Shown piece by piece: positions 40,140-64,000 of a stretch of 64,000 nucleotides of DNA (position 1 is its first letter; each line of letters opens with the position of its first letter). Both the position numbers and the translations under genes were made by a program. Below the pieces are notes generated by a model. That model ran no database searches. It saw nothing but the letters and a program-made list of their open reading frames with translations, and was not told where the DNA came from. The stretch lies in IMG/VR virus record IMGVR_UViG_3300028601_000019, positions 68,130-132,129 of that record. The stretch is one strand, 5' to 3'. The DNA comes from a virus. Its lineage: Duplodnaviria; Heunggongvirae; Uroviricota; Caudoviricetes.

Positions 40140-40145
40140 AAAACT

Positions 40146-42589: not shown

Positions 42590-42591
42590 CA

Positions 42592-44700: not shown

Positions 44701-45109
44701 CACTACTATAAATTTGATCTGCAATTAGCTGCAAACGTTCATATAGTTCAATTTCATGGGGTTCAATTTCATTAACAGAAAGTAGAGAAAATTTCTTGAT
44801 TTTGATTTTATCATCGTAATCCACAGTCTTTAGAAGAAGCTTAATAAGTCCATCTTTATCCTCTGCACTAATGTTATCCATAACAGTTTGGTCAAAGATT
44901 AGAACAATGTCATATCCATTTTCATGTCTTTCATCGATAGATAAATAAGACATGAAAGGATTCAATGCCTTAACTTCCCCAATGACATATTCGCCATTGG
45001 ACTTCTTTTTACGATTACGAGCACAAATAAGTCAGTTTAGATTCATTAGATGTGGATATTCCTTGGACAAGATCTCATCAAAAATTTCACAGTTGTACGA
45101 TTCAAACAT
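44693..45109 (-). CDS. Hypothetical protein, 138 aa, code 4
   Basis: The track ORF extends through TGA 45032-45034 to ATG 45109, which has RBS aaggag. Confidence 0.7.
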
Positions 45110-45140
45110 TTTTAATTCTCCTTATGAGGTATTTATTTTT

Positions 45141-46247
45141 ATGAATTTATTAAGTATTATTGGAAAGATAATTTTACATATAATCCTCCTACCAGTTAAA
45201 ATTTTAGTATCTGTTCTTTTTAACTTTTTGTATTTACCTTCAGTTAAATTCGATTCAAATATATATTACACTACTCCTACAGTAGATGTAAACAAAAGAG
45301 CCGAAGAAATAAAAAATTCTTTGAACATAAATGCATATATTAATGATGGCGATGGTGCAAAATTTTTGGGTCTTGCATACACATCGTGTAAAGACAAAAG
45401 ACTTTGAGATGAAGTATCAACTCTTCTGTATGGACTTTCATATATACTTCGGGTTCCTTGGTCAGAAAACTACGATCAAAAAGTTTTTTCTGGTGATATG
45501 TGAGCAGGAATGTTTCCTGCTATATTGACAGCTTTAGAAAATAATCATATGTCAAATTGACATAAAAAGCAAGTCTTAAGCATTATAGAAAACACCATTT
45601 TTAATGGAAAATCTTTTGTTTTTAAGCATCCCATTGATGATGATCAAGATCGTGGTTTTATTTTCCCCTTTTGGTCAATGGGATCTAATTTTTTTGATGT
45701 AATATCAATGTGTTTAATAGCTGAAAAGTTAAATGGTGGAGTTAAATATAAAGTCTTAAGATACATTTTTACCATTATAGGATTTCCATTGATGTTCTTT
45801 TTAAGACAAGGGATATTTATTAAAGATGTTTATGCATTAAATTTTTTCACGGAACACTCTGCGCTTGTTAAAGCGTATTATGTATATAAGTTTTGTGGAT
45901 ATAAATTTTTGAAACGCCCAATTGTAAGGCATTGTGAAGATAATCCTTGATTTTTAGATTCTGCTAAATTTTTACAAGATTTAACAGGAAATTCTTCATA
46001 TGATATGTTTTTAAATGATTATCTCAACACAACCAACTTAGAAAACATTGAAAACATTCCATGGACATTTAAACATACATATTTTTCATTAAAAGGATTT
46101 GAAAAGAAAGATACTTATTCACTTTATTCTTTACCATATAGATTTAGAATGGGATCTAAATATTTAGATGATGATAAGCCTATGGAACCAAAAGGGGAAA
46201 AGAAATTACAATCAACTGCCGATTTCATTCATTTTTATAATTGATAA
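45141..46247 (+). CDS. Unknown membrane-associated protein, about 368 aa, code 4 (4 internal TGA + TGA-TAA end)
   Basis: Three track ORFs share one frame. RBS gaggt; hydrophobic N-terminus and a central hydrophobic segment. Confidence 0.7.
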
Positions 46248-46252
46248 GATAT

Positions 46253-46268
46253 GGGGCTATTTAGCCCC
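46253..46268. terminator. Short GC hairpin between convergent genes
   Basis: ggggct-attt-agcccc. Confidence 0.5.
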
Positions 46269-46735
46269 TAATCTAGTACAACCAATTCAAGTTCTTGTAC
46301 CCCAAAGTCCTTTGCATCTACAACTTTTCCAACCATTATATCTATCTTATTTGTGAATCTTTCATTCATCAAATCACTAACATATTTAATACCATGACCC
46401 TTTACATATACTTTTTTCCCAAGCATCCAGATAAGGTCTTGAGAAACGGCTATATGCCATCCTGGTCGTGGCCTAACCATTAATGCAGTATTATTAAAGT
46501 CATCATTACACTCTTCTTTTCTTGGCGTATATGCAGTGGCCTCTACTTTAAATGAAAATCTTTTTTGTAAATTTTCTGCGTATTGTGTAATAGCTTTGTT
46601 TTCTTCTCTTAGAATATACAGTTCTTCTTTTAAGTGTTGTATTTGCATTGCGTTGTTTTGTGTGGAATCAATTGCAGTATAGCCGAAGTATGTAAGAGAA
46701 AAGAAAACTATTACCCCTAAAATAACCTTATTCAA
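46268..46735 (-). CDS. 3D-domain cell-wall hydrolase-like protein with N-terminal signal anchor
   Basis: VEATAYTP, IAVSQD, KVYVKGHG..YVSD, KIDIM. Confidence 0.8.
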   Translation of the reverse strand: MNKVILGVIVFFSLTYFGYTAIDSTQNNAMQIQHLKEELYILREENKAITQYAENLQKRFSFKVEATAYTPRKEECNDDFNNTALMVRPRPGWHIAVSQDLIWMLGKKVYVKGHGIKYVSDLMNERFTNKIDIMVGKVVDAKDFGVQELELVVLD

Positions 46736-46745
46736 AACACTCTCC

Positions 46746-47432
46746 TTAAGTTTTCAAAATTTTATGATAGGTTTGATTACTTCTCAAATAACTTAAACAT
46801 GAGAAATATGTATCATCTATTTTACCCTCTGTAAATATATGAAAGTGACCAAAAACACATAACGATGGTTTGAATTTATCTATAATGATATCAAGAGCAT
46901 ATGTTGATGGGTCAGTGCTTCTTTCATTCATCCAATGAAGTTTTTCACGAAGTTTTGGTAAAAATCTTCCTGGGGATGTATGACTTACAAGAATATCAAT
47001 TTTTTGAGATTCAATATTATCGAACAAAAAATTCATATCTTTGTTTGTTATGATCTCTTGAGGAAACCAATCGACAAAAGTTTTTCTCAAATTTTTATCT
47101 GTAGATTCAGCACCACCACAAAACATAATCTTTTTTCCTTCGATCTTTTCAATTGCACCAAATGTTGCTAAGAAAACATTGGGCTGAAGCTCATGTAATT
47201 TTCCTAATTCATATCTATCAATAATTGACCATTCTTCATGGTTTCCAGGAATCCAAATAAGCTTAGAATCATGGGGAAGTTTTATATTTGGGATAGGCTC
47301 ATTTTCCCAAAAATATGCAACATCACCACAAATAATAAATGTAAGTGGTTCTTTATGTTTAGAATAAAATTCATTCATAAAGGAATTCAGTTTCCCAAAT
47401 TCCCCATGAATATCCCCAATAAAAACAATCAT
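46746..47432 (-). CDS. Calcineurin-like metallophosphoesterase
   Basis: GDIHG, CGD, PGNHE, VSH, FGHFH. Confidence 0.88.
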   Translation of the reverse strand: MIVFIGDIHGEFGKLNSFMNEFYSKHKEPLTFIICGDVAYFWENEPIPNIKLPHDSKLIWIPGNHEEWSIIDRYELGKLHELQPNVFLATFGAIEKIEGKKIMFCGGAESTDKNLRKTFVDWFPQEIITNKDMNFLFDNIESQKIDILVSHTSPGRFLPKLREKLHWMNERSTDPSTYALDIIIDKFKPSLCVFGHFHIFTEGKIDDTYFSCLSYLRSNQTYHKILKT

Positions 47433-47434
47433 CT

Positions 47435-49296
47435 TTATTCCTTATCGAAAAATAAAATTAGAAATGATGCAAAATCACTTTTAAGAGTAATTTTTTGAGG
47501 TTCTTCAATTCTTTTAGAAAGAGTTATAATATTATTTAGTTGAATAAGTTCTTCTTTCCAATAGGTAACAACTCTATGGTGTAGTTCTTCACCTTCCCTC
47601 TGATAATAGGTAGTAGCTTTAAGGGCCTCTTTCTTTGTCATAGGTTTGGACCAAGGAAAAAATCCTTTTCTTTTATTCATAAGTTTTTCAGCCTCATTAA
47701 ACCACACCTTAATTGCACGTTTCAACAAATGCTTTTTACATTTTTTTGCTGCTTTAGCACACTTATGAAGATCAAGCTCTATTGAAAACTCTTCAAATAA
47801 GCTACTCATTTTCATCCTCTACTGTTTTTAAAAATTCTATATATTCATTAATATGATCACGTAACTTACAAACTTGATTTACCCATTCTTCATGAGACAT
47901 TTCATATGTTCTATGAAGTCTTGCTCGTTCATGACAACTTGAAATTTCAAGAAAGCTTACATTTCCACCTTTTTCATCTTTACTCCATTTTATATCACCA
48001 TAAAATGAACAAACTGTAGATGTACTTGGCTCGTTTTCATCTGTTAAGAACTCTTTTTTTACCCATCTTTTACATTTACTCGACACCAAACACCTCCAAT
48101 ACTAGATCTTCTGCATCTTGCATTATGTCAAATTCCTTACTACTTGAATATCCCATTGCAGGAATATTTACAGCAAATTCCACAGTTGCTTTCGCTAAAG
48201 CCATAGATGATGCATATTGATTCCACCTATCTAATCCAACAGCAGTATGCCCACAACAAACATAAGTTATGATTTTATCATTATCATGTAACATTAGTAA
48301 ATTAGGATTGAATCCACATATTGGACATTTTATAAGATCGTTCATTTATTCCCCTTCATTGTCTGCAAACCCTGTGGTATATCCCTCTTCATACCCTTCA
48401 TCATATGCCTCTTGATGAAGATTCTCACACCACTCTGTAAACTCATCTAAAGATATTTCAATTTCTCCAAAAGAGTCGTATACTCGTTCCACTTCTTTAT
48501 AATCTAACATCCTTTGTTCTCCATTTGTTTTGCATTATTAAATCCTCGTTCATAACCAGCTTCAAATCCTTGGTCATACGCTTTTCTATGAACTTCTTTT
48601 AGTTCATCGTAATAGTCCATTTCTGCTTGGCCATACCCATCTGAATAACCATATTCATGACCTTCATCATACCCTTCATCAAATTTTGATTCTAGCCGAA
48701 TATTTATATCATCCATTAACTCATTACATTTCTTTTGTGTTAAGTTACTTATTACATTATTATACCAATATTCAAAACTTTCAAAATCAATATCCCCTCT
48801 TCTAATGAGGTCAAGAATTTCAACCAATGGCTTTTCATATAAGTTGTATTTATTCATTTTAATAATCCTCTTGAATTTTAAAAACAACACCCAAACAAAA
48901 ACCCCCATCATCTTCATAAATCCTAAAAACTTCATGTGGCCATGACCAATCAAACACCCAATCGAAATATTCACCATTGAAAGTTGTACACCAATGAGAA
49001 TCTAATTTACCAATGGCATTATATTTGTTTTCGAAATATTCTTCCATTTCTTCCTCATCATCATGGTCAACATCATCCCACGATTTCAAAGGACCATTTG
49101 GAGAAAACCAAAACATTTCAAGATCTCTATTTCTATAAAGCTCATCATTAAAATAGCCTCTAAGTTCAATACAATCATCGGAATGACCAAAAACAACTAC
49201 CCATCTATTTTCTTTAGCAAGCCGTTCTTCTTCCTTTGTTAGTTCTTTGCCCATTTCCCGACCATCAAGACTTTTAGCAAACTCTTCCATGTTCAT
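47435..49296 (-). other. Array of six small early hypothetical genes
   Basis: Abutting ORFs. Two carry (Y/F)xxG acidic repeats (YDEGYDEGHEYGYSDGY). Confidence 0.6.
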
Positions 49297-49305
49297 ATTT
49301 TTCTC

Positions 49306-49905
49306 CTAATGATAATCTACACTAAAAATTTCTTGTTTGTTCATATATTCTTTGATATCATCAACAGACCAAATTCCCTTCTTTCGTTCTGTATAGAATC
49401 CATCCCAACCCACATCAAGGATTCTTCCCTTACCTTTGTAAGCCATGTGGCAATGCCCATGAATATGTCCAACACCCTTTGCAACTGTTGACCATGAAGC
49501 AAGAGGATAATGAGAACATACCAATGGATACATTTTTGTATTCTTGGTTTCAACAGGGAATTTTTTCTCAACAATATGAGTAGTGGATACGTCAAAATCA
49601 TTCAATTCCATCTTTGATCTATATATGGAAATTTCCCTTAGAAAATTTGGTTTATCGTGATTTCCGGGAATTACGTTAAAAGACTTGAAGTTTAAACGAT
49701 TGAGGAATTCATTTGCCTTTTCAAGTGTTTTCCATTCGCCCATGAAAACATCACCAAGAACATATACATCATCATCGTTTGTAATGTTAAGGTTCCATCT
49801 TGTTATAATAAAATCATGCATGTCTTCCAATGAAGAATGTGGTCTAAAGGCAATAGCACATCTTTCATGTCCAATATGTAGATCTGAAGTAAAAAAAGTA
49901 GTCAT
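49306..49905 (-). CDS. Calcineurin-like metallophosphoesterase
   Basis: TSDLHIGH, LGD, PGNHD, SHYP, HIHGHCH. Confidence 0.88.
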   Translation of the reverse strand: MTTFFTSDLHIGHERCAIAFRPHSSLEDMHDFIITRWNLNITNDDDVYVLGDVFMGEWKTLEKANEFLNRLNFKSFNVIPGNHDKPNFLREISIYRSKMELNDFDVSTTHIVEKKFPVETKNTKMYPLVCSHYPLASWSTVAKGVGHIHGHCHMAYKGKGRILDVGWDGFYTERKKGIWSVDDIKEYMNKQEIFSVDYH

Positions 49906-51026
49906 TATTCTTTTTCCTCTAATTGTTTAAGCAATCTATAAATCCATTCGTTCATTATAGTGGCAGCACCATAACACCCTTCATTAATTAGTTCATCAGC
50001 CACCTTTTCTAAAGATTCGTTTCCATCCCATTTTTTAAAGACAGATAACCATGCATTTGAACCTCCAACCAATAATTTCCCATGAATACATGGATCAAAT
50101 TCAACACCTTCTGATTTGCAATATGGATTACAACATTTATTGTATTTTGACATCCAAACGTAATGGCATTTTTCACAAAACCATTCTTTCATTATTCAAT
50201 CCCTAATTTTTTTAATGTTCTTTTAGCAATGTTTATCATACATGTGGAAGATACAGACCACATAATATCACCGGGAATTTGTAAAACACTTGCAACCTGT
50301 TTAGTTAGAATTATTTTCTTCATCCCAAGATTCTTCATGTATTTTCTGAGCATCCAAAATGATATCAGCAATAACACAAAGCTCAACACCAGTAAACAAC
50401 CTTTCCAATAGATTCATAGTACTACGAAACATTTTCTTTCTCCTTGATATTTTTAAAAAATTCTTTTACTTTTTCTTCAATAATATCTGAACATTCATCA
50501 GTATAAAATCCATCATTACATGTATCACACCAATAAACTTCTGCTGGCTCAGAAAACTTATGCCCTTTGTATTCGAATTCCTCTTGGATCTTCTTTAAAT
50601 ACATTCTATCAGATTCACAAAGAAGACATTTACAACCATTATAAAGCATGTTTCTTTTCATTAAAACTCAATCCTCATAGATTTTGAAGACACAATTTCT
50701 GCTGAGTAAAGATGCTCAAAATATCCACACCAAAACGGCACAAAAGCATATGGAGTTCTGTCATCAGTAAGAAGCTCCAATTTCATAGCATAGTTGTCTG
50801 GATGGCTGTATTTACCACTATAAACACAACCAACAGGCATATCCTTTACCCAATTTTTACCATTACTATAATCAAAAGTCTGATACTTTTCATAGTGATT
50901 CTTGATACGCTGAAGATTTTCTTCTAATACATCAAGATTTTTCCATTCTCCTTCAAGATCTTGAGTTTCTTCATATGAGTTAAAAGAATCTCCGGTTCTA
51001 TATTCTATTCTAATTGTATATCCCAT
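49905..51026 (-). other. Four small early genes, including a YgiT/MqsA-type Zn finger (50422-50661)
   Basis: CLLCES...WCDTC; abutting ORFs. Confidence 0.55.
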
Positions 51027-51223
51027 TACTTGCCCCCATTATAAATGCATGTTGAAGAAACAGAAGTCCCCCACATTCCAACAGTAATTGTAAGAGACAA
51101 TGTATTATTTCCTTCAATACAATGTTTTTCAAATTCTTTTTTGGCTTGTAAAGCATCTTTTGTATTTCCAGAACAACCAACCAAAAGAGATATAAGAAGT
51201 AAACAACCAATAATCTTCCTCAT
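51026..51223 (-). CDS. Small lipoprotein
   Basis: MRKIIGCLLLISLLVG-C lipobox. Confidence 0.65.
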   Translation of the reverse strand: MRKIIGCLLLISLLVGCSGNTKDALQAKKEFEKHCIEGNNTLSLTITVGMWGTSVSSTCIYNGGK

Positions 51224-51669
51224 TAAAAAATATCCTCTACTTCTGGTTGATGATAAATTGTTACATCCCAAGAAGGATCAACATCTTGCCAACGTGCTTT
51301 CATTTTTTTCATTGTTTCTTCTGGTACATTATGAATAGTTTCATATTGAGTATACATATTAATGATGATTATATTGAGATTTGGAAAGATTTCTTTCAAC
51401 GCAACATATCTTTCCATTTCCCAATTGGTTGTAAACGTGTTGGAGACAATTACATCCATTCCACCTTTAAGAGCTTTCATTGTGCTATAATAACACCAAT
51501 TATGAGCATCTTTGATTCTATCAGCATCAAATTCATAACCATTTGGGGTTTCATAAAACATATCTGTTTCAAGTCTTTCATACATGAAGTGATTCTTTTC
51601 TTTGATTTTCTTAGCGAAAGTAGACTTACCAGACCCCGGAAGACCACGAACTAAAATTAATTTACTCAT
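51223..51669 (-). CDS. P-loop kinase (AAA_33 / polynucleotide-kinase-like)
   Basis: LVRGLPGSGKSTFA, ETD, VIVSNTF, HNVP. Confidence 0.85.
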   Translation of the reverse strand: MSKLILVRGLPGSGKSTFAKKIKEKNHFMYERLETDMFYETPNGYEFDADRIKDAHNWCYYSTMKALKGGMDVIVSNTFTTNWEMERYVALKEIFPNLNIIIINMYTQYETIHNVPEETMKKMKARWQDVDPSWDVTIYHQPEVEDIF

Positions 51670-52236
51670 TATAAAACTCCAAAATACATTGTTTGAAAAT
51701 ATCTGGTGAAACCATAATGCTTTTTCCCTCTACTGTTTCTGGAAAAGACAAATAATATAATCTGTCTTGATATTCATAAAGTTTTTCAAGACTTTCTTGT
51801 ACTTCAGCCACCGTCGTATCTTCATATTTTATCTTAACAACTTTTCCATAAGGCATTGTAATTTCAAGAATTATCATATTAGCTACCTATTCCTCAATTC
51901 CACAGTGTTTAAGAATTTCTTCTGCCAATCTATAATCAATAATTGAGTTAATATCAAAATCAATTCCATCAAGGTCATCGATCACTTCATCAATCCAATC
52001 TTCCATTTCCTTAATCATATTCTTTCCTAATATACTGGGTTATCATGTTTTTCAAACTGGGGATAGGGAACCTCAATACACAGTTTGGGGTCTACTCCAT
52101 GCTTCTTCATATAGTCAACAGTTTTCTTCTTACTATTGTAAAGAAGAACAAAACCATAAGATCTACCATCATGAATTATTTCATAACCATACATCTTCAT
52201 GATAATCTCCAAATAAATTGTTGTTTTGTTAAGATC

Positions 52237-52265
52237 AGAATAACAAAACGATGAGCATTTGTACA
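52237..52265 (-). promoter_or_regulatory. Early-type promoter TGTACA-N17-TATTCT
   Basis: The -10 box and leader (52214-52242) are identical over 29 bp to 62001-62029. Confidence 0.75.
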
Positions 52266-52299
52266 TATAAAATTTAAAAAATAAATCTAATTAAACAAA

Positions 52300-52476
52300 C
52301 TACTTATTATAAATAAGAAAATCCTACAAAAAATCAATATATTTATACATCATTTTTTGAAGGATTTCTAGAATTTCTTCTAAGTATTTAGATTCATTAG
52401 GAAAACTAAGAATTTGGAGGATTTCTAAGTTATTGATATAATTAGGCTTCCTAAAATCATCAAGAATCTTGAGTTT
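52300..52476 (-). repeat. Copy 2 (inverted) of the dispersed ~180-bp non-coding element
   Basis: Core 52373-52412 is the exact reverse complement of 32514-32553. Confidence 0.9.
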
Positions 52477-52483
52477 TCCAGAC

Positions 52484-53333
52484 TTACCAAACATCTTCAG
52501 AAAATAAAATTGTTAGATTAGAGGCTCTATCCAAAAGTTGATTTGCTTCACGAGCAATCTTCTTTGCTTCCTTTCTATCAACAAAAGGTCTAAGATTTGT
52601 TTCAAATCCTTGCTCAGTTTTACTATTCATTTCCAAAGAAAACATCGTTTCTGGTATGATTCTAAAAACATTATGGTGTCTTGCTGGGGCTGGCAATGAC
52701 CAAATTTCACCAGTTTCCTTATGTCTAATAGCCGCTGCTAAAATTCTTTCTTGCATTACCAACCTCTTGTTGAAAGATAAATCTTGGCATCTAGCCCAGT
52801 AATTCTTTTAAAATTTTCTTTAGCTACTTTAATAGGAAGTTCTAAAACATCAAGATTAATCTCTGTAGCATTATAATCTTCACTATTTTCAATCACAATT
52901 CCCCAAAGACTATGTTCTGTAGGTGCATCATAATATGGTTGAATACACTCAATGTTTTCCACTTCATCAAAATCTTTAGGTAGATACTCACTCCAAAGCC
53001 CAACAACAATAACAGCACTATAATCAATACCCATTATTATCTTCTCCTTACAAGTTTCCTCATATAAGTTTCTCCAGTCTTTACATACTCTGTCCTGAAC
53101 TCAAGAACTTCTTCTTCCTTTTCATAAATTTCAAATTCATCAAAAAGTTTTTTGTGATAACCAACCAACTCTTTACACGCTAGTAGATAAAAGTTTTCAT
53201 CCAAAACCAAATCTTTATGAAACAGACAGATGTCAATCAGACGATAAACATAGTTCTCCAACTCAATATGAACCAACTCAACATCAATGTCGAACAGATC
53301 TTCAAGTTCTTTACAAATTCTCTTAATGTCCAT
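52484..53333 (-). other. Three small early hypothetical genes
   Basis: Abutting intact ORFs. Confidence 0.55.
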
Positions 53334-53335
53334 AA

Positions 53336-53725
53336 TTACTCCAAAAGTCGTAGTTTATCTGTAATACCAATAAATTCATCATTCCAACACGGACCAATGC
53401 CCACACAAGTATATGTAGGTTTATCAAAGAATGTTAATCCACGATCCTCTACGAGAAAACATGGAAGCCTTCTATCCAATGCTTTTTCATATACATCAAG
53501 CAATTTCTTTTCAGACTTAACATATACAACAATCTTTGTAAAAATACCGTCTAACCAATCTTCTCTTGCAGAACCAATAGGTAAGTTAATAAAGATTGTA
53601 TCTAAATTTCTTGTAGTAGTATCTAAAAGAGCACCCATAGAAGCGTGAGCCACTTGTGCTGCTAGTTTTCCAGTAGGCATATTCAAAGATTTATTAACAA
53701 CAATAACTTGTTTAGTTTCCAACAT
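53336..53725 (-). CDS. pth2: Peptidyl-tRNA hydrolase, Pth2 family
   Basis: KQVIVV...MPTGKLAAQVAHAS, KIVV, DRGLT, TCVGIGP. Confidence 0.9.
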   Translation of the reverse strand: MLETKQVIVVNKSLNMPTGKLAAQVAHASMGALLDTTTRNLDTIFINLPIGSAREDWLDGIFTKIVVYVKSEKKLLDVYEKALDRRLPCFLVEDRGLTFFDKPTYTCVGIGPCWNDEFIGITDKLRLLE

Positions 53726-53980
53726 TACTAATCCACCTCAATTGGTTGAATGATTATTTCCCACGCATAAGAACAAAAATCCTGAGCACTATAAGTTCCG
53801 TCTTTTCTTTTAAAAATTTCACTATGTTTTTTATGAAATGTTTCTAAAATTTGTTGTTGGACAAACGCAAGAGAATCTTCCAATGATTGTTTGTATCCAA
53901 GTTCAACAACGTGAATGTCATCTGGATCTCTCCATGTATCTGCCGCATTCATCTGTTTGTAAATTCTATAGACTATCATC

Positions 53981-54262
53981 TTATTCTCCCTCATATTCCC
54001 ACAATACAGCGTTACAATACGCATGAACAGCACCCAAAGTCAATCCAGTATCATGATCATGATGAAGATGAATTGGATTTTTAAAAAATCCATCTGGGTA
54101 AAGATGTTCATGAATTTTTAATTTTAAAACTTCAATAGGTGGCTCTTCATCAAGTTTTCCGCCACAATGACAACATTTTCCCTTTTGAAGATGTACATAT
54201 TCTTCCCTCACAAGACGCCTGAAAGAAGGATCAAGAGTTTCATAATTAACTGGTAATTTCAT
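53981..54262 (-). CDS. Endonuclease VII-like HNH domain protein
   Basis: Q..KCCHC...HLHHDHDTG...GAVHAYCN. Confidence 0.75.
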   Translation of the reverse strand: MKLPVNYETLDPSFRRLVREEYVHLQKGKCCHCGGKLDEEPPIEVLKLKIHEHLYPDGFFKNPIHLHHDHDTGLTLGAVHAYCNAVLWEYEGE

Positions 54263-55353
54263 TATGCATCTTCCCCCTGCTTGGAAGTTAAAAATTTGTT
54301 ACTCACAACTTTAAAACTAAAGTCTACATCATGACACTTTAGAACCCAACCTTCTACCCACACTTTATTATTTAATGTGGACTTATGTTCTACCATTTGC
54401 AATAGCTTTTCAGCTGTATGCGTTTCATCTAATATAAATATAGCATTTAAAATTGGAATATGATTATCTGTTTCATTCCCAATATTTGCAATACCCCACA
54501 TACAAAACCTTTCATATGGAGTTAAATATCTTTGCTCAGTAATATCATAAATATCAAATAATTTAAAATGTTGTCCTTTTAAATTATACATATTTCCATT
54601 AATTCCCTCGCCAACTATTTCACCCTGAAGAGCATAAAATTTTCCACTAATAATTTGAAATTTTCTAAGAATTATTTCAATATTTGATTCTCTTGCTACT
54701 TTCCAATATGTATTAGTTTCTGCTTCTTTTAATTCTCTATTTCTTGAACATACACCAAAAACAATTTCATCATCTATGTTGTTAAGATAAAAGGTTGAAC
54801 TTGTTCCATGAAGTTTTTCAGTAATTTCAAAAGATTCTCCATAGTAATTCGGAAGCACCCTTGTAAGGTTTTGAACTCTTTCCTGGTCCGTCTTCGGAAT
54901 GAAGGAAGGAAAATCACCCTTAACCACTCCACGAAGTTCAGCAGAAATAGGAAGTTCCCACTTCTGAATACCAAGAATGTTGGTTAGGTCTGTTCCCTCT
55001 CTTAATGGCTCATAAGGAATCAAATCAACAATATCATTAAGATAATGTATTGATAAAAGAAGTCCTTGGCTGTATATACCTTTCATCCGTTTTGTCTTTA
55101 ATCTCTGGCCCTCCACCTCATTATACACTTTAGGGAAATGGCCATCTTGGGTCAAAAATGGAGCAATAGTGTGAGGAACCCACGAATCAATTTCTATATA
55201 ACAAGCCAAATCACCCTTGTTCATTTCCCCTTTCTTTCCAACAAGAGTCCACCCGCCCACCTTATAAAGGTCAATACGATCAGCACCTTCTATAGGCTGA
55301 ACATCATCAATTTTAACCACATAAGCCATAGCTCTTTCGCCATTAATTAACAT
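54262..55353 (-). CDS. RNA ligase (DRB0094/Rnl2-like)
   Basis: IEGADRI, YIEIDSWVP, FPSFIPKTDQER, TEKLHGTS, LQGEIVG, EGWV, FKVVSN.FL. Confidence 0.85.
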   Translation of the reverse strand: MLINGERAMAYVVKIDDVQPIEGADRIDLYKVGGWTLVGKKGEMNKGDLACYIEIDSWVPHTIAPFLTQDGHFPKVYNEVEGQRLKTKRMKGIYSQGLLLSIHYLNDIVDLIPYEPLREGTDLTNILGIQKWELPISAELRGVVKGDFPSFIPKTDQERVQNLTRVLPNYYGESFEITEKLHGTSSTFYLNNIDDEIVFGVCSRNRELKEAETNTYWKVARESNIEIILRKFQIISGKFYALQGEIVGEGINGNMYNLKGQHFKLFDIYDITEQRYLTPYERFCMWGIANIGNETDNHIPILNAIFILDETHTAEKLLQMVEHKSTLNNKVWVEGWVLKCHDVDFSFKVVSNKFLTSKQGEDA

Positions 55354-55365
55354 AATTTATCCCTC

Positions 55366-56136
55366 TTAAGAATCGTTTGTACTTCGTTGAGTTTTAAATA
55401 CCTCTATAGCAACATCTATAGAGTTGATATCTTTAAGATGACTCCAATACATTCCATCTGGATATTTTGTATGTTTTCTATAAAAAGTAAAGCCGTTAAT
55501 AGTTTCATCTTTCTTTGCTACATATCTTGTACCAAGAAATGTAAATTCTTTTTCTTCTACAGGTCCTATACCACTTTCTCTTGATTCAATGTCTTTGAAA
55601 ATGTAATCAATAACCAAATCTGAATTAACAAATTCCTCATTAATAGTAACTTTACACTCTGTCAACATTTTTTTAATTTCATTCTCAAGATGTTTTGATT
55701 CTGTAAAAGAATGAACCCGACCTTCATTTTCAAAATTGAAACTTTCGTTTAAATTAATGAAATAGTTAATGTTTGGATAATTATGAAATGTTGAAGTCAC
55801 AAGATTTTTAAAATGTTCTATATCGTAAAAGCTGTCTTTTTGAAGATAAGTATTTGAAAGAATAATAGGGCTATCCATAATAACATAGTCATAAGAATCT
55901 TTTAATCTAAAAAGTTTTCTGTTCTGATTGGCAAAGATATGAAGTTGGTCTTCTTGAATGAGTTTAAATCTTTCTTCAAAGACACATTCCTTTGCATACT
56001 CTTGAACAAATTCAACAGAAAATCCGTTGATTTTCATCATATAAAACAGCCCTGAAGCAAGTGTAGATTTACCAACTCCAGGAGCACCAAAAATATTGAT
56101 TACATTTTTAAGCTTCATCGTCTTCCTCATATACAT
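55366..56136 (-). CDS. AAA_28/NadR-like P-loop protein
   Basis: IFGAPGVGKST, EYAKE, MDSP. Confidence 0.75.
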   Translation of the reverse strand: MYMRKTMKLKNVINIFGAPGVGKSTLASGLFYMMKINGFSVEFVQEYAKECVFEERFKLIQEDQLHIFANQNRKLFRLKDSYDYVIMDSPIILSNTYLQKDSFYDIEHFKNLVTSTFHNYPNINYFINLNESFNFENEGRVHSFTESKHLENEIKKMLTECKVTINEEFVNSDLVIDYIFKDIESRESGIGPVEEKEFTFLGTRYVAKKDETINGFTFYRKHTKYPDGMYWSHLKDINSIDVAIEVFKTQRSTNDS

Positions 56137-58062
56137 CTACCCATGTTTCTACTTTCATTGTTTTGGCAATAACCTTACCACAATCTACACAATATGCCTC
56201 TTTCCATGTAATTGGACTAGACATATGCCCCTCTTCAAAGAAGCTCTGATTTCTAATCTGCGTTCTTTTATGAGAGCATATCTTTTGGAAAATTTTAGTT
56301 TCTTTATCTAGTTCATCTTTTAAAACATTGTACTTTTGATTAAACTCCACTTCAAGCCTATTCATCTCAATGGCCAGCATTTTAATTTTTGTTTTATTCA
56401 ATTTCCACTTCCTTCTTAATGATATAACTCCCATTATGAACAAACCCCTTATATGATGTTCCTGTTAATGATGAAGTTGTTTGAACTGTATAATCCATTA
56501 GTAACTTTACAGTTCTGGAAAACTGATCAAAGTCAATTTCATATTTTTCAAAAAACAAATAATCAACCTCTCCACCATTTATTAATTCATGTGCTTTATC
56601 TTCATCTCCATCAGCAAGAATCAAAGCGGCAAGCTCTTCATATTCAAAATAACTAGGCATCTATTTTTTCTCCTTAAGCAACTTTTTATAATGAGTAGCC
56701 TCTAGCCATCTTTTAAAAAGAAGCCTATAATATCTTGTTGGCAATATTTCCATTCCACCCGTATATACATTTCCAAAAGCGTATGGATAGTTGTTTATCC
56801 AAATTTTAATATAAAAATCATCACATTTAAATCCCAATGTAGGATATGAAAATACAACATCACATTTACCATCTTCATACATCAGAACCAAATTTTTCAA
56901 CATTTTATTTGTTTCTTTTGAGGACCACTTATTTGACACCCACATTCTTGGGCTTAAAATAACATTAATAAAATAGTCTAAAAGTTTACACCCCTTCACA
57001 AACTTATCTAAACCTTTCTTTTCTTTCCTCTTAAACATAATTTAACTCCTAAACAAGTTTCCCACATAGTTTACATTTAAAAATATCAACGCCTTTATGA
57101 TAATCTTCACTATGGAATTCGGTTTCTTCATGAGGGCAAAGATAATCACTCAAAAATGACAATTGATTTTTGTGTTCTTGTTTTATAAGTTCCCTATTAT
57201 TAATACAAGATCTAAGACATTTTATCCTTGGTTCATTATTTTTAGCGGTTTTATATAGTGCCTCTAAAATAATAGTGTTTTCATACCCACTATTCTTAAG
57301 TTCCATATAAGACCTTTCAAGATTTAAAAGAGCTTCAAGTTCTTTTGTATCCCTTTCAATGTTTTCTTGATCGTTTTGAATGTTACTTTTCAACATATAA
57401 TAACACTCTTTAAATTTCTTTTCGTATGGGTTCATATTATCCTCTCCAATGTTGTTCTTGAAGCTCTTCTTTTTCTTTATCAGTCATTAGCTCATTTTCT
57501 TCAAACTTTCTTATATCTTCTACAAGCTTTTCAATATATTCTGTCTCATAGTTTTCATATCCTATCATCTCAATTCTAAAAAGCTCATCAAGAGCTTCTT
57601 CATATTGTTCCATTGATTCAATCATTAGCTTTTCCTCTCAAGGTTCCTTATATTTCCCATAATTTCATTGATATCAACCTGCTTTGGTGGCTCAAAAGAA
57701 GGCATTCCCTCTTTATCAAGGAATCTTTTAAATAAGATACGTGCATATCTAGTTGGTAAAGCAGCACGATTTAGACGCAATTTTTCATGTGTAAAAACTT
57801 GTCCATAGGAATAAGGATAATTTGCAGTCCAAATAAAAACTTCAAATGATTCATCATCATAAAATTTTGTTGAGAACTCCATAACCTTTATTTTAAGTTT
57901 ACCCTCGTGATATTTTTTAACTAATTCATCAAGAAGGACATCTGCGTTTTTAATAGGGGGTTCTAAAGACAACAATGTAGAGGGTGAACAAATTACACTT
58001 AAAAAATAATCCAAAGTTTTGTTGAATCTAACATAACGATAAAGTCCATTCACATTTTTCAT
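56108..58062 (-). other. Array of six small early hypothetical genes; 56661-57038 and 57625-58062 are paralogous
   Basis: Shared IW.(N/A)NYPY(A/S)(F/Y)G...LPTRY.R.LFKR motif. Confidence 0.6.
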
Positions 58063-58071
58063 TTAAAACTC

Positions 58072-59019
58072 CTAATCAAAGATTTTATCAATAATTGTAG
58101 ATACATAAGCAGAATCAATTTTATCAACATCTGTCTTAGATAGCGCATCTACAAGCTGATGTAAGTAAGCTGCGTCTACGCCTGTCAAACTCTCTCTTAT
58201 CACATCATGATCCTTCAAGTCCATCTCGCTAATTTGCCACATGATCTTAAGCTGTTGCCCTGCACTAATTCTCCATCCACGTTCAATAAACTTCTTCATC
58301 CTAAAGATTGAGGCAATAGGATATAAACTTCCACGATAAATCAATGTCCTACTTAAGAGACATTCTAAAGCTTCTGGATCAAGATGTAAATAATTTTTAT
58401 CATAATCATAGTAGTTACAAGCATGTTTAAAATCATAGTTTGAATGAATTTCATCAGGATTTCCATAAAATCTAATAACAATTTGCATCTTATCACTTAA
58501 AGTAATAGCATTTTGAGAAAGAAAAATTGGCCTATATCTTGGTTTGGAATCATCTTTGATTTCTTCAGCGAGTGTGGATGCAAATTCTGTTGCATCATCC
58601 ATTCCTCTCAATTCATAATAGTCATATTCACTTTGGGTTTCTGAAGCAACTCCAGCAGACTTCATATAAATAGTAATTCTTTCTTCTTCAATTCCCTTGA
58701 TGTTCTTAATTGTTTCTTCTTTTACTTCTGGCTTGTAAGAAATTGTCATATCTTCAAATTTTTTACCATTAAGCTCAATGAATTTCTTTACATAGTATTG
58801 AGCAAGGGCTTTTGTTGCTTCCTTGGTTTTAAGGTACACGTCGTAGTCGTTCACACGTTCACCCAGTAACATTGAGGCTATTGCCCCACCAGTAACAATA
58901 GTATTCTTAGCAACTACTTGCCTAAGTTCCTCATCATCTATAGACTTAATCCAATCTTCAATTTTCTTCTTTAGATCAATCCTGATACCATTCTTCTTTC
59001 TTCCATACCTAATTTCCAT
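58072..59019 (-). CDS. Pol-beta-superfamily nucleotidyltransferase-like protein
   Basis: VTGGAIASML...VNDYDVY (GG..DxD) followed by SQNAIT and YDF.H. Confidence 0.65.
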   Translation of the reverse strand: MEIRYGRKKNGIRIDLKKKIEDWIKSIDDEELRQVVAKNTIVTGGAIASMLLGERVNDYDVYLKTKEATKALAQYYVKKFIELNGKKFEDMTISYKPEVKEETIKNIKGIEEERITIYMKSAGVASETQSEYDYYELRGMDDATEFASTLAEEIKDDSKPRYRPIFLSQNAITLSDKMQIVIRFYGNPDEIHSNYDFKHACNYYDYDKNYLHLDPEALECLLSRTLIYRGSLYPIASIFRMKKFIERGWRISAGQQLKIMWQISEMDLKDHDVIRESLTGVDAAYLHQLVDALSKTDVDKIDSAYVSTIIDKIFD

Positions 59020-61082
59020 TATTCTTTCTCCTTCATTCCATGTACGTTAAGAGTAGCAACACAACTGCAATACTTTAATTCACCACCATCAGCAAAAAGA
59101 TAATAGAAATCATCTTCTGCCCAAAGGATACCATCCAAAATCCATTCCCTTTTATTATTATCTACAAAAGTTTTTCCAATCTTATCTTTGGTTTCCTTGA
59201 TTATTTCTCTCCAATTGCCTTCACAAACACATGGAGCTACACCTTTTGGTAATTCAGATGTACGATTAGAAAATTCAGTACAAATAGGGCACTCAATTGG
59301 TTCACCTTGAAAATTACTATCACTTCCACTACAATGATTAATATGGGCAGAAAGTTCATCATATGTCAAATTTTTAATAAGTGGGCACCATGATGGAGTA
59401 ACACAATCTGCTCGTTTATGATGTGGTCTGCAACTCCATGTAATAGGTCTATATTCCCATACATGATTATCTGCCCATCTGTGTTGACAATGAACATTTT
59501 TTGCCAATGTGCAAAGAACAGCCTGATCATCGTCACAAAATGAATCTGTTGGGTCTGGATCATGCTCTACACGATGATGTGGGCAATCCATACAATTTTT
59601 ATATAGTTTCATTATCTAATTACCTGTGCCCTTACTGTTATATCACAGTTTCCTTGTTTATCGTAAAAATATGATACATGTTCACATCTTCCTTCATAAT
59701 CTACTGTTTCAACAATATCCCCTGGTCTTGGTATACTTTCACTATTGGTTTGAAATACTCCAACATTATAATTTCCTTCATAAAATCTAATGTTCATTGT
59801 CCTTCTCCATTCTTTTTTGAATTGCATGTTCACGAAAAGCAATCATTGCCCCCACAATACCAGCACAAATAATAACTACTAAAAATATAATCCAAGATAG
59901 TAAATTAAGAAAAGGAATACTAGTAAGAATTGCGAATAAGATAATTAGTGACGAATCATCTTCACCCCAATATGGTCTTCCAGTTACAAATTGCCAACCT
60001 ATAATAAGCAACCAAATGATTCCAATGATAGATACACCAAAAGATATAAATTCCATTAATTTTCACCATTTCCATATTTTTTACAAAGTTCCTTAAAAAG
60101 AGCAAATTCCCGTTCTTCACTCTCTTCTTCCAATTGCTTTTTGCGTTCCTCTTCTAATTTAAGCCTTAAAAGCAGTCTTCTTTCCTCTTCCTCTTCCATC
60201 TTTATAACCCCTTCATAAATATCTTTACCAAACAAGTCAAGCATATTATTTTCAAGTTTGAAAATTGATTTTAATTTAATTTCATTACCATTTCTAAAGA
60301 CTAACCCAGAGCAATCTTTAATAAGATCGTCATAAGTTTCATATTCTTCTATTCTATCTTCCCACCATGCCCCATTATCATATCGATTATAAACTGCATA
60401 AAATAAAATATAAGACATTTTACCCTCGCTCATTAAAAATTTCGTCGCTTTTGTTTGAGATTTCTTGGTAGAATTCTGCCATAAGCTCACTAATCTTTTC
60501 AGCTTTTGCTTTCAATTCTGGTTCGTCAAGATCTACAACACCATGCCCTAAAATGTGATCATCCCACATACAAAATATTACATGAGTTGTATGTATTACT
60601 TCATGATATCCAAACTTATCATTATACATTTTATACCTCTTTCCAAAAGGTTACAAAAACACTTGTATATGTATTAAATTCAAACTCTTCTGGCGAATCT
60701 TTTGTTTTTTGGTACTGATTTCCATCCATACCATTAACAATGGGAAAAATAGAAATAATTTTAAGATCATCATTTTCAAGTTGCCAAGATTCAAACTCTT
60801 TTGGCGTGTCAAACACCCTATACGAAACAATTTTCATGTTTAATTATCTCCTACAACTAGTTCATTCCAAACTTCAATTGCTCTTGCAAGCATCTTTTCA
60901 TTATATTCTTCAGTAGTTAATGTTCGAGGCCCGATATTATTAACTGGGGTAAAAGTTTTTTTACTTTTTATTTCACATTCCTTACACATGATTCGAATAT
61001 GAACAATCATATTCTTTCGATTTCGATTTTCTACTACAACAGGATACTCATTTCCACAGTTTGGGCAGCATTTCATTTCCAT
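59019..61082 (-). other. Array of small early genes (Cys-rich 59019-59612, membrane protein 59787-60056, Zn-ribbon 60840-61082)
   Basis: Abutting intact ORFs. Confidence 0.55.
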
Positions 61083-61118
61083 GTTAATCCCTCTTAGTTA
61101 AGATTATTTATAAAAATT

Positions 61119-61147
61119 ATTCTACATACACTATCGATCAATGTAAA
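61119..61147 (-). promoter_or_regulatory. Early-type promoter TTTACA-N17-TAGAAT
   Basis: Exact spacing, directly after a terminator. Confidence 0.7.
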
Positions 61148-61148
61148 T

Positions 61149-61176
61149 AAAAAAGGAACCTTCGGGTTCCTTTTTT
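61149..61176. terminator. Rho-independent terminator
   Basis: aaaaaaggaacc-ttcg-ggttcctttttt. Confidence 0.9.
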
Positions 61177-61540
61177 AACAATTTATTTTGTTTGGCGAGA
61201 ACCCCATAGGCCTTGCTCGATCCTCTGGTTCATCCTCGTATTCATCTGCTGGTCCTTCTTCTGTTCCAACACCATCTCCGCAAGTATTGTACCCCATAAC
61301 ATTATCTTTTGCTCCACGTTCCGCATCCATAACCTTCTCATAATAATCATTTAACGTCTCATGAAGACCCTGAACATCTGAGACAAGATTCTTATATTCA
61401 TTATAAACGAGCCATTTTTCTGTGCCATCAAGTTTTAGAATCAAATAATGTTGTTTTTTACTAATGGTTTTAACACTATATGATTCTATTTTTCCTAAAA
61501 GAAAAGAGTGTAGATTATTGTCATAAAATTGAAAAAACAT
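61175..61540 (-). CDS. Hypothetical protein with acidic tail
   Basis: Intact ORF. Confidence 0.6.
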   Translation of the reverse strand: MFFQFYDNNLHSFLLGKIESYSVKTISKKQHYLILKLDGTEKWLVYNEYKNLVSDVQGLHETLNDYYEKVMDAERGAKDNVMGYNTCGDGVGTEEGPADEYEDEPEDRARPMGFSPNKINC

Positions 61541-61576
61541 AAAACTCCTTTAAACTTTTATTTTTATTTATGAAAC

Positions 61577-61596
61577 AAAAAAGGGCCCGAAGGCCC
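61577..61596 (-). terminator. Rho-independent terminator with cUUCGg loop
   Basis: Minus strand reads gggcc-ttcg-ggccc-tttttt. Confidence 0.9.
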
Positions 61597-61601
61597 AGAA
61601 T

Positions 61602-61982
61602 TTAGGAGTTTATCATAAACATTGTTGCCTTTCGCCCACGCTTTCCATTTTCAACCTTTTCAACATTCTTGAGAATGTTATCATTCTTGCATTCCATTAC
61701 GGCGCGATGGACAAGATATGGAGAAACCGAAAGCTTTGTTGCAACATCAACAATAGAAAATACTTCAAAATTCTTCGCCATAGTCACAATTTCACTCTTA
61801 ATGAAATTATGAAGATCATTGCGAGAAGTCTTCTGAATCTTCTGCTTGGGAATCCGATTCTTCTTAACAGAGGATGGTACACAATTTGAAATTACGTTGA
61901 CTACAAGTTCTTCAACACGCGCCTTTCCAATACGGTTGTTCTTAGCAAAGTCGTTGATCAGGTTGATAATGTTGGTGTTCAT
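61602..61982 (-). CDS. Putative DNA-binding (winged-helix-like) early protein
   Basis: SIVDVATKLSVSPYLVHRAV and basic GKRGRKA. Monocistronic unit between a promoter and a terminator. Confidence 0.5.
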   Translation of the reverse strand: MNTNIINLINDFAKNNRIGKARVEELVVNVISNCVPSSVKKNRIPKQKIQKTSRNDLHNFIKSEIVTMAKNFEVFSIVDVATKLSVSPYLVHRAVMECKNDNILKNVEKVENGKRGRKATMFMINS

Positions 61983-62023
61983 GGTGTTTCTCCATTTGGT
62001 TAAATTGTTGTTTTGTTAAGATC

Positions 62024-62052
62024 AGAATATCAAAAGCCAAAATAAATGTACA
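62024..62052 (-). promoter_or_regulatory. Early-type promoter TGTACA-N17-TATTCT
   Basis: Exact spacing; leader shared with the 52237 promoter. Confidence 0.75.
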
Positions 62053-62078
62053 CAATTATTTTCAAAAAATTAAAATTT

Positions 62079-62384
62079 TTATCGCCAAGGATATGCAGAA
62101 TAAGCCTTCAATCCAGTTGCAGGAGAAATTCTACTTGGACGATCAGAAAGTTCAAGGTCGGAACGATCAAATTCATAATACTTATTTTCACTCATATCAT
62201 AGCAAACTAATCCGGAACAATCTTCATAAAACTGTCTACATTGGATCTTATCTTCTGTTATTGAAAAGGCAATCTTCTTTCCATTCTTAATAAAGACATT
62301 TCGCCGGCCATCTTGCTCGTATTGATTTTCTTCAAGAAAATCCTTAAAAATAATTCGACTAAGGTTGTTGTTTCCAATGCTCAT
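62079..62384 (-). CDS. Hypothetical protein
   Basis: ATG 62384 follows the upstream gene's stop. The longer track start is likely spurious. Confidence 0.55.
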   Translation of the reverse strand: MSIGNNNLSRIIFKDFLEENQYEQDGRRNVFIKNGKKIAFSITEDKIQCRQFYEDCSGLVCYDMSENKYYEFDRSDLELSDRPSRISPATGLKAYSAYPWR

Positions 62385-62385
62385 T

Positions 62386-62743
62386 CTAATTCTCCTTTTT
62401 AGTAAAATACATCTTTGCTTGCTGTACATTACACTTATACAGCTTTCCATCAATATCCTTAAAAACAAAAGGATATTTGTAAGAACTTTTATGATACTCA
62501 ACAAGGGTTTTTCCACAAGGACTAGAAACCTGAAGATTATAGATATTCATTACAGATTCTAGCATAGAAGAAATTCCAGATTCAGATTTTATTTTTGAAA
62601 CAAGCTTAACAGAAAATTCGTCATCATTAAAGGTAATGGTTCCAAGATTAAAAGAAACCCCTTTCGTCTCCGAACTTTTTGAGAAGAGCATCAAGTTCGG
62701 TTCTAATGGAATTAAGATTGGATTTATCAAATTTCGTAATCAT
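62386..62743 (-). pseudogene. Gene apparently frameshifted near 62660 (or an assembly indel)
   Basis: ATG 62743 (RBS ggag) gives MITKFDKSNLNSIRTELDALLKKFGDE and then stops, while KGVSFNLGTITF... continues in the +1 frame. Confidence 0.5.
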
Positions 62744-62789
62744 AGTTAGTCTCCGAGTTTGTTAGATGTTTATTTGTTCCGTTAAGATT

Positions 62790-62818
62790 AGAATAACAAA
62801 ATCGCCATTTCATGTAAA
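62790..62818 (-). promoter_or_regulatory. Early-type promoter TTTACA-N17-TATTCT
   Basis: Exact spacing, with TG extension. Confidence 0.75.
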
Positions 62819-62826
62819 CAAAAACT

Positions 62827-63778
62827 TTAGTCATTTTGAAAATAAGTTGGCTCTGGTAGTGCAATCTTAAAATTCAGGAGATCCTTGAATTTACAATGAT
62901 AAACCTGTCTAACTGAAACGCCTCCAAATCTATCAAAATCATTACAAAAATTTACAAAGAAAACTAAAGGCTCATCAAACTCCAGAGTGAATTCACCATC
63001 TTCAATATAAAATGCCCCATACTCTTCTTCAAATACAACTTCATCAACGCCATAAGAGTTATAAACTGCATCTTTCATTAGCCGTGTAGTTGTAGAAACA
63101 AAATATTCTTCACCATCTTCGTCAAACATATCTTTAACAAGATCTTTTTTAATGTAGTCTCCAAAGTGAGAAACAAGATCATCATAATCTTGACAAACGG
63201 AATTCATCATCTTTAACATATCTTCTTTTGAACTAACAAGAAAGAACAATGGAAGACCAAAGAAATCTTGGTTAGTTTTAAACTCAGTCTCTGATAACAT
63301 CTTATTGATTAACATGATAAAATCTCCTTAAAAAATGAATAAAGTAATTTTCCACAATAGAAAAAGAAACTATTGAAGAAGATAAAGAATGACGTATATT
63401 TTAAAGTTTCGTTAAATTCAAAAGTTTTAAATGGAAAATAATCTCTTACACTAAAAAAGGTGAACCCAGCGCCAATACAAGTAAACAAAACGGTATCTTT
63501 AGATACAAGAAATGGTCCAATGTTTAAAAGTAAAACAAAAACACCTATAAAAATTATCATATATTCTCCTATTTTAGCCTTTTAAAATTTAATAAAAAGA
63601 AATCTTTATGCTCCTTTTGAAACTCTTTAATAAATGCAGCAAGATTTTCACTCACTTCCAAATCATATGTTGTTTCAACAATTCTCCATGATCTAATGGC
63701 ATTATTGTTTTTATCCACCCATTCAAAAGTCACATACCAAACATATTTGTTCAAAAACTTTTTTATTCTTTGAAACAT
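62827..63778 (-). other. Three small early genes (62827-63315 acidic, 63309-63560 membrane, 63569-63778)
   Basis: Abutting intact ORFs. Confidence 0.55.
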
Positions 63779-64000
63779 TCTAATAACCTCACTTTAGCGT
63801 CTGAGTTCATTTTTTCAAAACATTCTTGAAGAGTCTTTCCTTGTCTTAGAGCAAACATGATTCCAGAATATGGAAGATCTTTTACTTTAAGAGCATAGTC
63901 CTTTTGAGTAAGTTCCTCGGAGGAAATGCACTCAAATTTAAAATGAATGGCTTCTACCATGACACCATATGCATCAATCCAAGGATCAAAGTACTTTTTA
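63763..64000 (-). CDS. C-terminal part of a probable T4 Rnl1-like RNA ligase (truncated by the window edge)
   Basis: TQKDYALKVKDLPYSGIMFALRQGK resembles phage RNA ligase 1 C-termini. The catalytic domain is not visible. Confidence 0.4.
   Translation of the reverse strand, partial: KKYFDPWIDAYGVMVEAIHFKFECISSEELTQKDYALKVKDLPYSGIMFALRQGKTLQECFEKMNSDAKVRLLECFKE

Follow-up and report, generated by a model that had tools for sequence, protein, structure and literature searches.

A gene block without TGA codons

The stretch of DNA analysed here (64,000 nucleotides in full, hereafter the window) covers bases 68130-132129 of a single 164,754-bp IMG/VR virus contig that originated from landfill metagenomes; no RNA run was listed as containing the region. 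From position 46268 to the window end at 64000, the minus strand carries about 45 tightly packed genes of early type, in which all tryptophan codons are TGG and all stop codons are TAA or TAG. This code-neutral block lies in the genome of a T4-like phage in which TGA encodes tryptophan, and the block can be read alike under the standard bacterial code (code 11) and under the code in which TGA specifies tryptophan (code 4).

A home-made caller built on a self-trained codon model predicted, under code 4, 234 genes in the genome, with approximate starts. Within the block, the calls comprised 39 minus-strand genes with 4,933 codons, among which 87 TGG and two apparent TGA codons were counted. Both apparent TGA codons fell in spurious 5' extensions of open reading frames (ORFs), and one of them was part of a GAGGTG ribosome-binding site directly before the ATG of a PTH2 peptidyl-tRNA hydrolase gene. 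Five small genes that the caller missed contained about eight more TGG codons, with any TGA lying upstream of the true starts; for one of these genes (50422-50661), the alignment to a relative started exactly at the internal ATG. A preliminary description of this DNA had reported more than 80 tryptophan codons from 46268 onward, all of them TGG, and TAA or TAG at every stop it had checked. Both statements held, with at least 87 TGG and no genuine in-frame TGA, and with 27 TAA, 12 TAG, and no TGA among the stops. Because the ends of the minus-strand ORFs in the block were identical under code 11 and code 4, no block gene ends on TGA.

The trinucleotide TGA occurred 545 times on the minus strand of the block, and 468 of these occurrences were out of frame within called block genes (364 in frame +2 and 104 in frame +1). 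The remaining genome contained 231 TGA and 338 TGG codons, which contrasted significantly with the block (p = 1.4e-18, Fisher test). The TGA-free run extended beyond the window to approximately genome position 149,200 (35 kb in total), and the only TGA-bearing genes in these 35 kb were those of a two-gene lysis cassette, consisting of a GH108 endolysin gene and its neighbour.

The functions encoded in the block were of early type. They included an ATP-dependent RNA ligase (54262-55353, minus strand) with seven TGG and no TGA codons, a P-loop kinase of the AAA_33 family resembling polynucleotide kinase (51223-51669, minus strand), two metallophosphoesterases (46746-47432, minus strand, and 49306-49905), and the PTH2 enzyme, which is of the archaeal/eukaryotic type (53336-53725, minus strand; the apparent in-frame TGA upstream of it is part of its ribosome-binding site). 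Speculatively, PTH2 could be of use if UGA makes ribosomes stall or drop off. A Gad2-like nucleotidyltransferase (58072-59019, minus strand) was assigned to a putative anti-defence family by language-model and structure look-alikes, and was 85% identical to its counterpart in the related contig G1, which is described below. At the downstream end of the block, a GC-rich terminator-like hairpin (46253-46268, minus strand) was found together with a peptidase-like gene (46268-46735, minus strand) that weakly matched L-alanyl-D-glutamate peptidase. A sigma-70-like promoter composed of a T-run, TTTACA, a 17-nt spacer, and TATTCT was located at 62790-62819 on the minus strand and was the sole intergenic copy of its family inside the block. 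At 61148-61177, a hairpin formed by a perfect 13-bp palindrome, with runs of A and T on its flanks, would terminate transcription in both directions.

TGA use across the phage genome

The contig showed a T4-like gene content, with gp23-type capsid, vertex, gp20 portal, gp17 terminase, and gp5/gp6-type baseplate hub and wedge genes, and a replication set of clamp and clamp loader (gp44/45), topoisomerase II, NAD ligase, gp43 DNA polymerase, and gp32. These marker genes, together with TATAAATA late-promoter boxes, identified it as a T4-like myovirus. The closest capsid among cultured phages was 37% identical, and a nucleotide search against cultured phages returned no near relative. A 133-kb IMG/VR contig (G1) served for comparison; it was mostly ~45-93% identical at the protein level and was collinear with this genome except for one large inversion, whose breakpoints (genome positions 20471/20535 and 59046/59517, L007-L009) lie at divergent late-promoter regions and which may be real or an assembly alternative. 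CheckV estimated the completeness of the contig as 69%. However, the contig ends (genome positions 1-712 and 163474-164754) were joined by positions 47480-51463 of G1, with ~1.5 kb missing inside one 671-codon ORF, and the segments absent from G1 were all present in this contig. Since G1 bridges both ends and the parts lacking in G1 are found here, the CheckV value looks wrong, and the genome is essentially complete at ~166 kb and circularly closed or permuted.

Many long genes were broken under code 11 and intact under code 4. In the terminase gene (TerL), each of the seven in-frame TGA codons stood opposite tryptophan in 69-114 of 120 homologues, and its TGG codons likewise aligned with tryptophan, so TGA encodes tryptophan, and not glycine, in this phage. 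At conserved tryptophan sites of TGA-using genes, TGA and TGG differed between this phage and G1 in 56 of 178 cases. The stops of the 234 called genes were TAA (176) and TAG (58), the code-4 calls allowing no TGA stop by construction. At two gene ends, 31916-31921 on the minus strand and 46242-46247 on the plus strand, TGA was directly followed by TAA, as had been noted beforehand for the two genes that appeared to end on TGA. The base 3' of TGA showed a weak excess of A (p = 0.06). An apparent clustering of TGA toward the 5' ends of genes was gone when only conserved tryptophan sites were considered (p = 0.11 and 0.98), and was attributed to over-long ORF starts. The large terminase (L007:6448-8439, minus strand) is longer at its N terminus, by ~190 residues, than the usual 515-residue homologues; inteins are present in many of the terminase homologues in the database.

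The preliminary description had proposed a per-gene census of TGA/(TGA + TGG) against functional class. Run genome-wide, this census gave a bimodal distribution that matched functional class only in part. Among the 98 genes with at least three tryptophan codons, 45 were without TGA compared to 12.5 expected, and none lay between 0 and 20% TGA; such bimodality was unmatched in 20,000 simulations. These results showed that the genome contains two discrete, sharply separated gene classes.

Both classes were represented in the window outside the code-neutral block. The replication and nucleotide-metabolism block (14617-31285, minus strand) was mostly TGA-free and contained genes for clamp, clamp loader, topoisomerase II, a gp42-like enzyme and its kinase, NAD ligase, and dNMP kinase. 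The TGA-bearing exceptions within it were genes for a PAAR spike tip (16948-17232), a glycosyltransferase with six TGA codons (17234-18292), a small gene product (18534-18911), and dUTPase (25083-25574), and a further gene at 29835-30251. Baseplate and tail genes at 407-10145 on the plus strand need TGA to be read as tryptophan, among them the baseplate hub (407-2152, plus strand; seven TGA, no TGG) and a gene with eight TGA codons (5017-7788, plus strand). The adjoining tail-fibre cassette (10571-14272, plus strand), of late function, had no TGA, 15 TGG, and a raised GC content (0.36-0.38). Three of its genes carry the same C-terminal module (phrog_29482), and the cassette may be a recently exchanged host-range cassette. 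A mixed block followed at 32715-46247 on the plus strand, where RNase H, primase, and two epimerases were TGA-free and their neighbours were recoded, including genes with seven TGA (41324-42589, plus strand) and five TGA (44952-46247, plus strand).

Genome-wide, the baseplate, portal, terminase, sheath, and endolysin genes carried TGA (four codons in the tail sheath), and the TGA-free genes included major capsid, vertex, scaffold, the tail-fibre cassette, the two epimerases, and beta-glucosyltransferase. The richest in TGA were homing-endonuclease-like and zinc-finger mobile genes. The earlier assignment of ligase, topoisomerase, clamp and loader, RNase H, and gp42 with its kinase to the TGA-free set was confirmed in both names and TGA absence. 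The accompanying proposal that structural and glycosylation genes prefer TGA was correct for baseplate, portal, terminase, sheath, and one glycosyltransferase, but failed for the TGA-free capsid, vertex, scaffold, tail-fibre, epimerase, and beta-glucosyltransferase genes. The TGA-rich C2H2 zinc-finger family (L012:6119-6733 and L012:13538-14725, both on the minus strand, and L058:17274-18560) behaves like mobile elements: the copy in the relative L058 interrupts nrdD (anaerobic ribonucleotide reductase), and another copy coincides with the assembly break at the end of the contig.

The separation of the two classes was compared with general codon usage. Two-fold codons for Lys, Glu, Gln, Leu, and Arg ended in G at a share of 0.29 in the early block, compared to 0.19-0.26 in the late blocks, and the non-tryptophan codon families were nearly identical between TGA-free and TGA-bearing genes. 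If tryptophan tracked the other purine-ending pairs, ~29% TGG would be expected in the block, while 100% was observed (0.29^87, ~1e-46). In TGA-using genes, TGA made up 63% of tryptophan codons, compared to an A-ending share of 73-89% in the other two-fold purine pairs. Neither GC content nor codon usage explains the split.

Related contigs showed the same partition. The TGA-free and TGA-carrying gene sets of G1 matched those of this phage, and sites with TGG here and TGA in G1 were significantly rarer in TGA-free genes (5 of 122) than in TGA-bearing genes (16 of 66; p = 6e-5); in the DNA polymerase, 11 of 11 tryptophan codons were TGG in both phages. A third lineage (L058), with 75% terminase identity, also requires TGA to be read as tryptophan, and had TGA at none of four tryptophan codons in the capsid gene, none of two in the scaffold gene, and two of three in gp32, with seven TGA codons in the terminase gene. 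Because TGA and TGG swap in TGA-bearing genes and rarely in TGA-free genes, it is selection, and not acquisition age, that keeps the TGA-free class in three lineages. This is consistent with the earlier statement that the early block is translatable under either code: its ORF ends are the same, it is TGA-free, and it is kept so by purifying selection. A more distant relative (L060; 50% identity, equal GC) uses the standard code, with TGA at 4 of 24 stops (17%) and 96 TGG codons. Given this rate, zero TGA among the 39-45 stops of the block was significantly fewer than expected (p < 1e-3). Because this relative uses the standard code, the recoding arose inside a standard-code clade.

Promoters, decoder, and host

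The sigma-70-like promoter family had about 25 intergenic copies (e.g., at genome positions 135073, 147731, and 16505) and marked the block and other TGA-poor stretches; the TATTCT-like box was often followed by AATCTTAAC. This family of T-run, TTTACA, 17-nt spacer, and TATTCT-like box probably represents the early promoters of this lineage. A generic sigma-70 promoter scan performed no better than on shuffled sequence. The T4 late-promoter consensus TATAAATA preceded the capsid, vertex, scaffold, baseplate, and endolysin genes, and the lysis cassette embedded in the TGA-free run was TGA-bearing and stood behind such a box.

Seven tRNA genes were found in this genome (Arg-CCU, Met, Pro, Thr, Tyr, Leu-CAA, and Ala) and ten in G1, none of which reads UGA. 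ARAGORN in the -ps70/75/80, intron, and mitochondrial modes returned hundreds of hits, nearly all within coding sequence, and no credible tRNA(UCA) or tRNA(CCA) among them. Rfam searches (gathering thresholds and E <= 5 outside the window, gathering thresholds only inside it) revealed no extra tRNA-like gene, and no UCA anticodon arm accompanied by a T-arm and an acceptor stem was picked up when this genome (G000) and G1 were scanned with a custom search. Profile searches for release factors (PF00472) and for class Ib synthetases including tryptophanyl-tRNA synthetase (TrpRS; PF00579) gave no match. The phage factor that the preliminary description had invoked to install UGA decoding was therefore not recovered, as no tRNA(UCA), release factor, or TrpRS was found. 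This absence is not due to incomplete assembly, because the genome is essentially complete, and it is not unusual, because a suppressor tRNA was detectable in only 35% of code-4 phage genomes (Borges et al., bioRxiv 10.1101/2021.08.26.457843).

Several candidates were considered and rejected. A 66-nt cloverleaf had the loop CCUUGAA and no UCA anticodon. A low-scoring tRNA-Leu(CAA) could not be taken as a shifted UCA tRNA, as a 6-bp stem that covaries in the two phages fixes its register and its A73 fits leucine. A 142-residue CDA-fold deaminase that the caller missed (30194-30622, minus strand) fell below the tRNA-deaminase cut-off and adjoins nucleotide-metabolism genes, and is probably a dCMP or cytidine deaminase. 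The gene labelled by PHROG as a tRNA methyltransferase (L012:6832-7668, genome positions 156832-157668, minus strand) encodes a generic class I S-adenosylmethionine (SAM) methyltransferase; it is TGA-free and lies near the tRNA cluster, as does a full CCA-adding enzyme with an HD domain (L012:8239-9624, extending to genome position 159624, minus strand). The methyltransferase, the CCA-adding enzyme, and the window's RNA ligase and kinase together form a large tRNA-maintenance set. The tRNA-directed early genes (CCA-adding enzyme, class I methyltransferase, PTH2, and CDA-fold deaminase) showed no tie to UGA decoding.

It is conceivable, though rather doubtful, that the phage makes UGA read as tryptophan without a suppressor tRNA of its own. 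Host release factor 2 could be neutralised so that host tRNA-Trp(CCA) would read UGA by wobble, or a host tRNA could be altered by an early TGA-free enzyme such as the methyltransferase, the CCA-adding enzyme, the deaminase, or PTH2. Under such tRNA-free decoding, the conserved avoidance of TGA in the capsid genes would reflect low decoding efficiency.

The phage encodes cell-wall enzymes, including an endolysin with GH108 and PG_binding_3 domains, a gp5 hub that bears a VgrG3-like lysozyme domain, and the product of the L-Ala-D-Glu-peptidase-like gene. Because the phage carries peptidoglycan hydrolases, a wall-less code-4 host of the Mollicutes is unlikely. Shulgina and Eddy (PMC8629427) screened >250,000 genomes and, among bacteria, detected UGA = Trp solely in Mycoplasmatales, Entomoplasmatales, and insect endosymbionts. 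A Bacteroidia metagenome-assembled genome (MAG) contains a related 1.6-kb contig (capsid identity 90%) and an Izimaplasma HR2 MAG contains a relative of 53% identity, each a weak host link based on one or two small contigs; both MAGs carry prfB. The host likely uses the standard code.

Interpretation and known systems

With a probability of about 0.58, we interpret the block as belonging to the early genes of a T4-like phage lineage that reads TGA as tryptophan, kept code-neutral together with the core replisome and the most abundant head proteins. The code-neutral genes would be those that have to be translated as infection begins, when UGA is still a stop for release factor 2, or those that need maximal output. 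The other genes, including baseplate, portal, terminase, lysis, homing-endonuclease, and some replication and recombination genes, would become fully translatable once UGA reads as tryptophan. The decoder would belong to the host, be host machinery modified by a phage protein, or be an RNA that went unrecognised.

Several observations weigh against this interpretation. Although preceded by TATAAATA boxes, the capsid, vertex, and scaffold genes lack TGA in three lineages, and the tail-fibre cassette at 10571-14272 is late in function but likewise TGA-free. TGA is conserved in the genes for gp32, gp41, dUTPase, a helicase, and the gp47-like exonuclease, and a strict switch from early stopping to late readthrough would therefore block replication proteins. 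Assigning genes to the class of the nearest promoter separated the two gene classes only weakly, timing was judged from gene content and promoter-like motifs, and no code-change machinery was recognised in a genome that closes to within ~1.5 kb. The split runs gene by gene and not simply as early versus late.

The temporal switch put forward in the preliminary description, with early genes translated under the standard code and late genes only after UGA decoding is installed, was in line with the TGA-free early block under selection and with the TGA used by the late lysis cassette embedded in it and by the PAAR spike tip and glycosyltransferase genes inside the replication block, but not with the TGA-free capsid, vertex, and scaffold genes or the recoding of several replication and recombination genes. 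It is plausible but unproven, and has to be amended in that the code-neutral set includes the core replisome and the most abundant head proteins and that no phage decoder gene was found. A mixed reading fits best, in which TGA is avoided by genes that must be made before UGA is decoded efficiently, or regardless of it, while the others drift toward TGA.

Alternatively, UGA could be readable throughout infection but slowly or incompletely, so that TGA avoidance would mark fast or highly expressed genes and not timing; possible causes are near-cognate reading by host tRNA-Trp(CCA) where the host's release factor 2 is weak, or a factor carried in the virion and active from time zero. The genes of the most abundant late proteins (capsid, scaffold, and vertex) are free of TGA in three lineages, those of replication proteins, gp32 among them, contain it, no inducible decoder is encoded, and the TGA share of 63% in TGA-using genes is below the A-ending share elsewhere, all of which such slow reading would accommodate. 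We nevertheless regard it as unlikely, given that avoidance in the block is absolute (0 of ~95 codons) even in tiny accessory genes, not all of which are likely to be highly expressed, the distribution is bimodal and not graded, the tail sheath has four TGA codons, and the lysis cassette within the early block uses TGA. A further alternative is a host that itself uses code 4, where no switch would be needed and the TGA-free genes would answer to another constraint, e.g., exchange with standard-code phages. A phage without tRNA(UCA), release factor, or TrpRS, whose genome never uses TGA as a stop (by code-4 calls), would suit such a host. The peptidoglycan hydrolases, however, imply a wall, while the bacteria in which UGA = Trp is known are either Mollicutes, which lack a wall, or tiny insect endosymbionts; selection holds vertically inherited core genes, DNA polymerase among them, at TGG, codon usage is otherwise equal in both classes, and both MAGs with related contigs have prfB, albeit with a weak host link. 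A code-4 host, which had been named beforehand as the case that would speak against a switch, thus appears improbable.

Finally, the partition could be a by-product of local GC or of recent acquisition from standard-code phages. The early regions of T4-like phages are plastic, GC at third codon positions was slightly higher in the early block (0.23 vs 0.18-0.22), and the TGA-free tail-fibre cassette has raised GC. The block, however, showed 100% TGG where ~29% was expected; codon usage was equal in both classes, no TGA stops were present where a standard-code donor would give 17%, and the same genes were TGA-free in a relative at ~75% protein identity. The explanation by GC or acquisition age, also allowed for in the preliminary description, was thus rejected by the codon-usage controls and the relatives; for the block as a whole it is contradicted and most improbable, although it could still hold for the tail-fibre cassette at 10571-14272.

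Seen as a code-neutral part of an early gene set, the block can be compared with several known systems. T4 has early sigma-70 promoters, late TATAAATA promoters, a tRNA cluster, and tRNA repair by RNA ligase and polynucleotide kinase. This phage resembles T4 in gene content and order, TATAAATA boxes, early-type small genes on the opposite strand, and genes of the tRNA-repair type. In T4, however, the standard code is used throughout, timing is transcriptional, and there is no codon-level partition. The well-understood promoter classes of T4 can here be compared with codon choice, and the comparison shows no clean early/late split.

Bacteria with UGA = Trp share the same reassignment and low GC with this phage; they possess tRNA-Trp(UCA) and no release factor 2, and TGA occurs throughout their genes (PMC8629427). 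In this case, in contrast, neither tRNA-Trp(UCA) nor loss of release factor 2 was shown, and about half of the tryptophan-rich genes are TGA-free. The crAss-like phages show block-wise dual coding (Yutin et al., PMC7886860; Mgcod, bioRxiv 10.1101/2022.06.29.495998), and their genomes are likewise split into standard-code parts and parts with reassigned stops. They belong to a different lineage, and unlike their two contiguous blocks, the division here runs by gene, with the classes alternating in operon-like runs (32715-46247).

A parallel in layout is found in stop-codon-recoded phages of standard-code hosts, which include code-4 Jade, Agate, and crAss-like members (Borges et al., bioRxiv 10.1101/2021.08.26.457843). 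The layout seen here matches the model of Borges et al., in agreement with the link to published proposals drawn in the preliminary description. Those phages share with this one the TGA to Trp reassignment, low GC, a gene set compatible with the standard code, the loss of TGA as a stop, recoded codons in genes for structural proteins and lysis, standard-code relatives within the clade, and a suppressor tRNA that often goes undetected. They differ in that they form gut phage clades, whereas this phage is a T4-like myovirus from landfill that has no code change module (tRNA, release factor 1, or TrpRS) in a near-closed genome, a TGA-free major capsid gene, and several recoded replication and recombination genes. 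An essentially complete genome without a decoder gene sharpens the question of decoding for about two thirds of code-4 phages, and should the host be identified and brought into culture, codon-level expression timing could be tested directly. Code partition in recoded phages has already been published, with little experimental support, and this genome adds a T4-like example from outside the gut.

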